DNA from: a plasmid
Assembly (NCBI RefSeq): GCF_058153355.1
Contig: NZ_JBLWLY010000002.1
Reading direction: 5' to 3' (one strand)
Length of the DNA: 64,000 nucleotides
Below are positions 3,001 to 6,000 of this stretch, one piece after another (positions within the stretch are counted from its first letter, which is position 1; each line of letters begins with the position of its first letter). The position numbers were made by a program.

Positions 3001-6000
3001 TACCAGATGTTTTGTCATATGTCCAGTTAAGAGGTCCCTGTTCGGAAGCCAGATTTACAGGAGAATCGAAATCTTCCAGCATGACCTGATTCAGGTAATC
3101 AGTTGGTATGACATCCCACCAGTTGGTTGCTCCATTGGGACCTGCATACGCTCTTAATACAGCAACAATAACCCATTTTTTTTGTAAAGCATCATAAGCA
3201 AATAAAGGCGAACCACTGTCACCCGGGGCTCCGTAGTTCGGTAATGGCCCGTTTACAGGGTTATATGTTTGCCCGGGGTTAGAAACTATTGTTGTATTAG
3301 ATATTAGAGGAATGCCGATGGTTCCGCCTGTTTTAAAAGCATATCCGCCTGCAATGCTGGTTAATTTCCCGTCCTTGTCTTTTGTGTACTGAGTACCACT
3401 GCCAATCCGATAAAAAGCAGTGTAACGCTCGGTATTTTTATAAGCATTGCTTTTGGTTCCTTCATCTGTAACTGCCGAAGGAATAACTTCGGTAACCAGT
3501 TTATTCAGACGTGGGGCATGGAAGTCAACATAAGGGTGGTTATTACGGTCAACAAGGGAATATGAGTTTTTTCCGTTTCCAAATCCAACACTCTGGTATC
3601 CACCATTATGTTTTACGCTGACGATATACTGAGGAGACACCAGCGTGGCAACTCCATTGGAGCTTACGCTGCTGAAATCGGTCACTGGAGCTTTATCCAG
3701 TCGGCCAACAAGTTTTCCATTTTTGTCATATACTGGAATATCTGTGGCACCAGGCACAAAAAGTCCTTTATTTTCTGCAAAATCCCGGTAAATCTGATAG
3801 GAGATATCTGAACGAACAATACCAGCCTCTGATATCGCCGGATATAACAAACAGAGAGCAGGAGCAGCGATTAATGATATTTTTAACTTTAGCTCTGTTT
3901 TTTTTATTATGCGACTGGCAAGCTCAGATACGGCAATAAGCCCTCCTGTAGCAGGGCAATACTTAAGGGAATAGATTTTGTTCACAACAAGTTCTCCATA
4001 CTATTCACAGATACAATGAATGCACAAATAAAAACAGTGATAACATCTAGTTATCACAAAGGAAGTGTTGAACGCTGATATGTCATTATCATCTTAGAGT
4101 ACTTGACATGCTGTTATTTTGTAATGATCCCATATATGGAAGATAAATTCTGTGAGGAGGTTTTTAATTTTCTATACAAAACTGATCTGAGGTGTACTGG
4201 CAATAGCGGACACCACCATTTGTTCTTTTTCTAAGCAGTCATCTGATAATATTTTATCCTGAAGGCTGCCGGGGAGATATTCCCCAGACGAGAGTGACGA
4301 CGCTGACGATTGTAGAAAATCTCAATGTATTCCCGTATTACTGAGATGGCTTCATCCCGGCTCTTAAAACGATAGTGGCTCAGGCTTTCATTTTTCAGCG
4401 TTCCCCAGAAGCTTTCCATCGGAGCGTTGTCGTAACAGTTACCTTTACGCGACATTGATGTTTTCAGACCAGACTGCTCCTGTATGACCCGGTAATCGTA
4501 TGCGCAGTACTGTGAACCTCGCTCGGAGTGGTGGATTAGCCCGGCAGGTGGGCGCTGGCTCCTGAGCGCCATAAACAGGGCTTTACCCGTCAACTCTTTC
4601 GTCATGCGCTCTCCCGTGGCGTAACCGACAATTTCGCACGTATAAACATCTTTGACGCCGGCGAGATACAGCCATCCTTTCCGGGTGGCAACATACGTTA
4701 TATCTGCGACCCAGACCTGATTAGGTGCTGTGGGCGTAAAGTTCTGATTCAGCAGATTCGGCGTAACCGGCAGATTGTGGTCAGAGTTTGTGGTCGCCCT
4801 GAACTTGCGTTTCTGCTTACAGTGCAGCCTCAGCTCCTTACGAAGACGTGCCAGTCTGTCACGACCGACGATAATTCCGTTATCTGCCAGCTCCGTCTGG
4901 AGCCGCCGGGTTCCATATGTTTCGCGAGTGCGGATATGTGCCACCTTAATCTCCAGTTTTAGCCGCTCATCACTTTGTTTTCTGTCTGAGGGGGCATGCT
5001 GTACCCAGTCGTAATAACCGCTCCTGGATACACCAGGTACCCGACACATCGCTTCAACAGGGAATTGTTGTCGCCATTGTTCGACTAACGCGTATTTTTC
5101 AGCGACTCCCGGGCAAAATACGCTGTTGCTTTTTTTAATATATCTCGCTCAAGTCGTGCTTCATTTAAAGCCTTACGCAGTTGCATAACTTCCAGCCACT
5201 GTGCGGGAGCCAGGTGTATTGAGCCCTTTTCTTGCGGCGGTAACCCATTGTCCTAAAGTGCCTTCAGGAACAGATAATCGGGAAGCGCCTTCACTGAGCG
5301 AAAGCTGATTTTCAGGAACCGTTTTGACGGCTTCGGCTTTAAACTCCGTAGAGTAACGTTGGGTTTTTCTGCTCATTATTGGCTCCTTCTGATGCCATTC
5401 TATTTCAGGAAGGAGTGTCCGTTAAACTCAGGCTACCTCACGCTTCAGGCGGGCATTTTCAGCGGCCAGTTCACTTTCACGCTCAGACGAGGTCATCTGT
5501 TGCTGCAGTTTGCTGCGCCACGCATAGAGCTGAGATTCATACAGGCTGAGTTCACGGGCTGCGGCAGCAACACCGATGCGTTCAGCAAGCTTCAGGGCTT
5601 CACTGCGAAATTCAGGCGAATGCTGTTTACGTGTTTTTTTGCTGGTTGATACTGTTTTTGTCATGTGAGTCACCTCTGACTGAGAATTTACTCACTTAGC
5701 CGCGTGTCCACTATTGCTGGGTAAGATCAATTTGCTCACTGGTATTTACTACGTGCATCGAATGAGTGATCAAGAGCCGTATGACGCGAGAGTGTCACGT
5801 ACGGTTCCGTGAGCAGCCGGAGAGTGAAACTCTCTCCGGCTGACTCGACTCGCAGGTTCCGACAGCGGTGATGAACATGCAGCGGTGTTGTTCTCGCTGA
5901 TCGGCACATGCCGTCTGAACAATGTGGAGCCAGAAAAATGGCTGCGTTACGTTATTGAATATATCCAGGACTGACCGGCAAACCGGGTACGCGATCTGTT

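Follow-up and report, generated by a model that had tools for sequence, protein, structure and literature searches.

Is the interrupted reading frame of a multicopy insertion sequence (IS) part of its native organisation, or is it a mutation that came to be shared by every copy? This question is raised by a plasmid stretch of 64,000 nucleotides (NCBI RefSeq assembly GCF_058153355.1, contig NZ_JBLWLY010000002.1), referred to as the window in the following. For this stretch, the original prediction had described six IS600 copies with one and the same discontinuity in orfA, where the frame terminates early and the remainder of the expected OrfA protein lies in a different frame ahead of orfB. Two explanations had been offered, the native organisation of an IS600 variant and a founder mutation carried by an element that nevertheless multiplied.

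The element and its copies in the window

A BLAST search of the element against the window revealed an IS3-family element with a full length of 1253 bp, which is present in four full and two truncated copies that are all 100% identical to one another. The search detected no further IS600-like sequence, neither intact nor diverged, within the 64 kb. The copies are designated c1 to c6:

4188 to 5440, minus strand: c1, full-length (1253 bp), ISSfl11/IS600-type, inserted in an IS3 orfA fragment
52367 to 53619, minus strand: c2, full-length (1253 bp), identical to c1, with a right flank that differs from that of c1
24309 to 25561, plus strand: c3, full-length (1253 bp), identical, its left junction adjoining a gene of the ShET2/EspL2 family
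58345 to 59597, plus strand: c4, full-length (1253 bp), identical
42455 to 43070, plus strand: c5, 616 bp, truncated to IS positions 1-616, deletion included
31442 to 31725, plus strand: c6, 284 bp, truncated to IS positions 1-284, deletion included

A 34-mer across the orfA discontinuity occurs six times in the window without any mismatch, as against zero occurrences expected by chance, and the frame ends as had been described, which confirms that all six copies share the discontinuity. The element starts with the left inverted repeat IRL (TGAGGTAGCC...) and finishes with the right inverted repeat IRR (...GTACACCTCA). These imperfect inverted repeats of the form 5'-TG...CA-3', as in the IS3 family (IS600 group), are complementary at positions 1-6, 10-12 and 20-26.

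With respect to its affiliation, the element differs from canonical IS600 by 83 mismatches (about 92% identity), while identity to ISSfl11-type copies reaches 99.3% outside the gap described below (9 mismatches in 1253 bp). The ISSfl11 label corresponds to the NCBI annotation 'IS3-like element ISSfl11 family transposase', and ISfinder convention places isoforms at roughly 95% nucleotide identity or more. Judged by these values, the element would be an ISSfl11-type member of the IS600 group in the IS3 family, for which the name IS600 is approximate. Of the six IS600 copies originally proposed, all six loci are therefore retained, though only four are complete and the closest relative is the ISSfl11 type.

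ISSfl11-type copies (e.g. Shigella boydii CP026844.1 13042-14305) have the same ends and the same gene order as the window element, and one insertion site, that of c3, is common to the window plasmid and many pINV plasmids. They comprise 1264 bp with an intact 100-aa OrfA and a 385-aa OrfAB, whereas the window element is 11 bp shorter in orfA and features nine private substitutions. Canonical IS600 (E. coli NZ_CP027556.1 12476-13739; 'IS600 ORF1/ORF2' of pCP301), which belongs to the same IS3-family group and likewise measures 1264 bp, matches the window element perfectly over 50 nt of IRL and the last 26 nt of IRR and also shares the A AAA AAA G slippery site and the 272-aa OrfB frame; unlike the window element, however, it possesses a continuous orfA (100-aa OrfA) and an intact DDE triad. 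The 100-aa OrfA and 385-aa OrfAB of these relatives agree with the 303-nt 'IS600 ORF1' of pCP301 and with the 1157-nt slippage CDS annotated by NCBI on IS600. Moreover, the best full-length matches in the plasmid collection span 1264 bp, compared with 1253 bp of the query. In a site-by-site comparison with all ISSfl11-type copies, four of the nine private substitutions proved to be in the IS600 state, while each of the other five leads to an amino-acid exchange in one reading frame or more. A literature search on ISSfl11, or on IS600 together with orfA and frameshift, yielded nothing relevant.

An 11-bp deletion in orfA

In each copy the orfA product ends RTVAGSYATA*, and the remainder of OrfA is found in the +1 frame. 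The relevant features are:

5173 to 5376, minus strand: truncated orfA of c1, 67 aa (61 native residues, 6 out-of-frame residues GSYATA, stop)
5085 to 5186, minus strand: stranded 3' part of orfA in the +1 frame, containing the leucine-zipper region, with the slippery run A AAA AAA G at 5136 to 5130
5192/5193, minus strand: deletion junction of c1 (IS positions 248/249), at which 11 bp, AGCTGGAATCT, present in all relatives, are absent
53371/53372, 24556/24557, 58592/58593, 42702/42703 and 31689/31690: deletion junctions of c2, c3, c4, c5 and c6, respectively

The start codon of orfA is the ATG at 5376 (minus strand), the encoded sequence is MSRKTQRYSTEFKAEAVKTVPENQLSLSEGASRLSVPEGTLGQWVTAARKGLNTPGSRTVAGSYATA, and the stop codon lies at 5175-5173. 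The +1 frame is open alongside the 3' portion of orfA and ends at 5085; the two open frames overlap for about 28 codons ahead of the orfA stop. When the element is aligned with two relatives, one from S. boydii and the canonical IS600 of E. coli, a single clean gap emerges, where the window reads GTGGCTG/GAAGTT and both relatives have 11 extra bases; the S. boydii relative has AGCTGGAATCT here, from which the canonical IS600 version, AACTGGAATCT, differs by one substitution. Since the alignment displays no microhomology at the boundaries, the position of the deletion is unambiguous. The deletion takes out codons 62-65 and shifts the frame. When the 11 bases are restored, translation gives a continuous 100-aa OrfA, and a -1 shift at TTA AAA AAA GCA gives the 385-aa OrfAB. 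Hence, a continuous orfA, which in the IS3 family comprises helix-turn-helix (HTH) and leucine zipper, measures about 100 aa and overlaps orfB in the -1 frame, is absent here and present in all relatives examined. The slippery heptamer A AAA AAA G is retained, but orfA is split into the 67-aa frame and the stranded zipper segment.

It is very likely that the split orfA results from a real, non-native 11-bp deletion. The comparison of sequences identifies the split frame as an ordinary, very probably inactivating mutation and not as the native design of the element. The native-organisation alternative of the original prediction is refuted, as canonical IS600 and ISSfl11-type copies alike have 11 bp more and an OrfA of 100 aa without interruption; a reference IS600 with the same split had been named as the outcome that would deprive the observation of interest, and canonical IS600 copies are continuous in orfA.

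Consequences for the transposase

Of the domains of OrfA, the 67-aa product retains HTH_Tnp_1 only (PF01527, residues 3-58, E=1.8e-14). Being placed in the +1 frame, the zipper and the slippery site are unreachable for ribosomes starting at orfA, and the sequence predicts that no HTH/zipper/DDE fusion is formed. A protein of this composition would require two successive shifts, +1 and then -1, and the overlap of about 28 codons displays no shift-prone site. In the well-studied IS3-family model IS911, OrfA likewise comprises 100 aa with HTH and leucine zipper, and OrfAB arises by a -1 frameshift, as in the intact relatives of the window element (PMC2909936). OrfAB of IS911 requires both the HTH and the leucine-zipper domains (PMC2909936), and the zipper is essential for activity according to work cited there. 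IS911 is a different element and serves here solely to deduce that losing zipper and fusion abolishes transposase function.

The second gene is affected in another way, as can be seen from the following features:

4231 to 5049, minus strand: orfB of c1, 272 aa, with HTH_21 and integrase-core (rve) domains
4522 to 4524, minus strand: Glu codon GAG at the second catalytic Asp of c1, giving HHSERGSQY versus HHSDRGSQY or HHTDRGSQY in relatives
52701-52703, 25225-25227 and 59261-59263: the same Glu codon in the other full copies, c2, c3 and c4

orfB stays open in all copies, and its rve domain is readily recognised (PF00665, E=6.2e-24). The 11-bp deletion has brought the orfA N-terminus into frame with orfB, but three stop codons lie between the two. 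The DDE residues were placed by alignment with the orfB frames of IS3H and IS2, a search of the OrfB sequence against solved structures for anchoring these residues having given no match. From what is known of IS3-family transposases and retroviral integrases, we take the Asp in WVADITY to be the first and the Glu in APMESFWGTLK to be the last residue of the triad. At the second position, a T>G change at IS position 919, private to the window element and present in all four full copies, replaces Asp by Glu in a column that is Asp in IS600, ISSfl11-type, IS3H and IS2. The triad, which is a complete D-D-E in the IS3 family, thus reads D, E, E. Asp-to-Glu changes at times leave residual activity.

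The orfA deletion, which is predicted to preclude the fusion, and the Asp-to-Glu change together make the element very probably non-autonomous, i.e. predicted to be unable to mobilise itself. Read by analogy with IS911, the sequence would imply that transposase activity has been lost.

Distribution of the deleted form

In all plasmids that were fetched, every copy spanning the site retains the 11 bases. A 120-bp query across the junction gave 140 near-full-coverage matches among 72,556 plasmid records, all of them gapped and at most 90.9% identical, and none was ungapped over the full length. The same held for 5,426 complete E. coli genomes, 10 of which contained matches, none being ungapped and full-length. 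A 40-mer across the junction was not found in species-representative genomes or JGI metagenomes, and look-ups of the exact 67-aa and 272-aa products, which covered about 15 billion proteins as well as 153 billion gene positions, were negative. Furthermore, no plasmid of the collection carries a sequence identical to the presumed progenitor haplotype with the private orfB substitutions, the best match being 99.1%. As far as the searched collections go, the deleted allele would be private to this plasmid sequence.

Insertion sites and plasmid context

The window is a segment of a virulence plasmid of the Shigella/EIEC pINV type and contains ospD1, ipgB2, icsP, ospB, phoN2 and ipaH genes. Its backbone is about 1-2% diverged from every plasmid of the collection, with no more than 60% of any long query being covered (PLSDB), and the plasmid appears to represent an unsampled lineage. 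A 894-bp inverted repeat with 99.1% identity (46333-47226 and 60510-61403) corresponds to the conserved C-terminal domain of ipaH genes; its two arms are predicted ipaH paralogues in opposite orientation.

The six copies display five distinct left junctions, four of which (c1/c2, c4, c5 and c6) are absent from the plasmid collection; for c4, neither the left nor the right junction is present there. The left junction of c3 is common to many pINV plasmids of S. boydii, S. flexneri, S. dysenteriae and EIEC. The copy that occupies the c3 site elsewhere keeps the 11 bases, lacks the private substitutions of the window and is truncated at IS position 739. The left junction of c3 is ancestral, and at least for this copy the deletion was not acquired through insertion at that site.

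Copies c1 and c2 share an IS3::IRL left junction as well as 289 bp of IS3 flank (5441-5729 and 53620-53908), and this junction was not found in the plasmid collection. An apparent counterpart in EIEC and S. boydii plasmids was rejected, as it consists of two unrelated neighbouring pieces and the IS3 is uninterrupted there. The flank contains 2 mismatches in 289 positions (5652/53831 and 5686/53865) versus 0 in 1253 in the IS bodies (Fisher p=0.035), a contrast that suggests homogenisation between the copies. The IS3 orfA interrupted by c1 (5428-5673, minus strand) forms an 81-aa ORF ending at the IS junction, a nested IS-in-IS arrangement that is typical of this plasmid family.

Directly before the complete left end of c5, at 42434-42454, lies a 21-bp piece of another IRL, and S. 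dysenteriae plasmids feature a 40-bp IRL remnant at this place. It looks as if c5 had inserted into an older remnant of the same IS. End-targeted insertion has been described for IS911, and the arrangement at c5 recalls it. Copy c6, in turn, replaces about 590 bp of other sequence lying between the same flanks in related plasmids.

A 3-bp target-site duplication was found at none of the four full copies, the left and right triplets being GCG/GAT, GCG/ACC, ATC/GCC and TTA/CTG, and a comparison of left with right triplets across copies, which allows for flank exchange by inversion, gave no match either. The absence of target duplications fits later recombination and is compatible with an IS3-family origin.

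How the identical copies arose

For the history as a whole we lean moderately towards a founder mutation, followed by a recent burst through transposase supplied in trans and accompanied by recombination between copies. According to this account, a single master copy that was already defective would recently have been copied to new sites, with intact IS600-group copies at other places in the cell providing the transposase in trans. Subsequent homologous recombination among the identical copies would have mixed up their flanks and removed the target duplications. Since the copies are identical at all private sites and four junctions are lineage-specific, a recent burst from one master is the simplest account. 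The use of IS600 transposase in trans is supported by the terminal identity to IS600 noted above, and since IS600 has expanded in all Shigella chromosomes (PMC7373316), a source of such transposase is plausible. Against this stands the finding that the 64-kb window contains no intact IS600-group copy. IS3-family transposases also prefer acting in cis, as is known from IS911, which counts against trans-mobilisation. That there is neither a target duplication nor a triplet match across copies also counts against transposition of the deleted form; we infer both the trans-mobilisation and the order of events.

In its combination of intact terminal repeats, a broken transposase gene and several identical copies, the element resembles non-autonomous ISs that are mobilised in trans. 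Classical non-autonomous derivatives (MITEs), however, have lost most of their internal sequence, whereas the window element is nearly full-length and its trans-mobilisation is deduced. The original notion of a founder mutation in an element that nevertheless multiplied is therefore upheld for the lesion, the shared 11-bp deletion, and in part for the multiplication, with four of the five left junctions being specific to this plasmid. The missing target duplications, the ancestral c3 junction with intact sequence elsewhere and the hint of homogenisation weigh on the other side.

The same three observations are what gives substance to another explanation, which we regard as unlikely though worth serious attention. 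Here, a single copy would have acquired the deletion, and gene conversion or homologous recombination, not transposition of the defective element, would have passed it on to intact copies that already existed, the copy number having been reached while the element was still functional. At c3, the left junction is ancestral and the element intact in other pINV plasmids, yet the full window haplotype is found here; the flanks of c1 and c2 are 0.7% diverged while their IS bodies are identical, and the fact that no target duplications are left indicates frequent recombination between copies. Also in its favour, IS-mediated rearrangement of pINV is well documented (PMC5629016). On the other hand, conversion tracts over nearly the whole element (the private sites extend from IS position 143 to 1090) would be required in all four full copies, with no mosaic left, and four lineage-specific junctions with zero divergence are more simply accommodated by a burst from one master. 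Recombination or conversion between copies also acts within the preferred history, and it could explain more of the pattern, or all of it.

An artefact of assembly or consensus building, by which the repeat was assembled once, from an error or an aberrant copy, and placed at six positions while the real copies are intact or heterogeneous, appears improbable. It would account for six copies that agree perfectly over as much as 1253 bp, and for the absence of the junction and the exact proteins from every searched collection. Yet the loss of 11 bp in non-repetitive, non-homopolymer sequence is atypical of sequencing errors, nine further private substitutions and a backbone diverged by about 1% fit a real, unsampled lineage, and identical IS copies are normal in Shigella. 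Finally, a native functional organisation with an additional programmed +1 (or -2) recoding in orfA besides the -1 shift can practically be dismissed, for although the frame overlap of about 28 codons ahead of the orfA stop and the open orfB of all copies speak in its favour, orfA is simple and continuous in all relatives, no +1 shift-prone site can be recognised where the frames overlap (the final sense codons being ACT GCG, followed by TAA), the catalytic Asp is mutated, and the organisation occurs nowhere else in the searched collections.

One may speculate, with little confidence, that the doubly defective element is a successful non-autonomous parasite of IS600-group transposase, which has out-multiplied or, through conversion, replaced all intact copies on the virulence plasmid, and the residual products of which may also damp the activity of host IS600. 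Candidates for such damping may be the 67-aa HTH peptide and possibly a protein of zipper plus dead DDE domain, starting at an internal ATG (5186) and joined to OrfB via the retained -1 site.

Concluding remarks

The finding is a new allele of a known element, and represents ordinary IS decay with a mildly interesting copy-number history. For annotation, this means that the six loci are best recorded as pseudogenised copies of the ISSfl11/IS600 type and not as a novel gene organisation. The 11-bp deletion and the private substitutions constitute a convenient marker for a plasmid lineage that is absent from the searched collections. Beyond that, the element illustrates on a small scale how an IS of almost full length, in which two lesions have very probably abolished the transposase, can be present in identical copies at several lineage-specific sites, and it thereby bears on the extent to which trans-mobilisation and homogenisation shape the IS populations of Shigella virulence plasmids.
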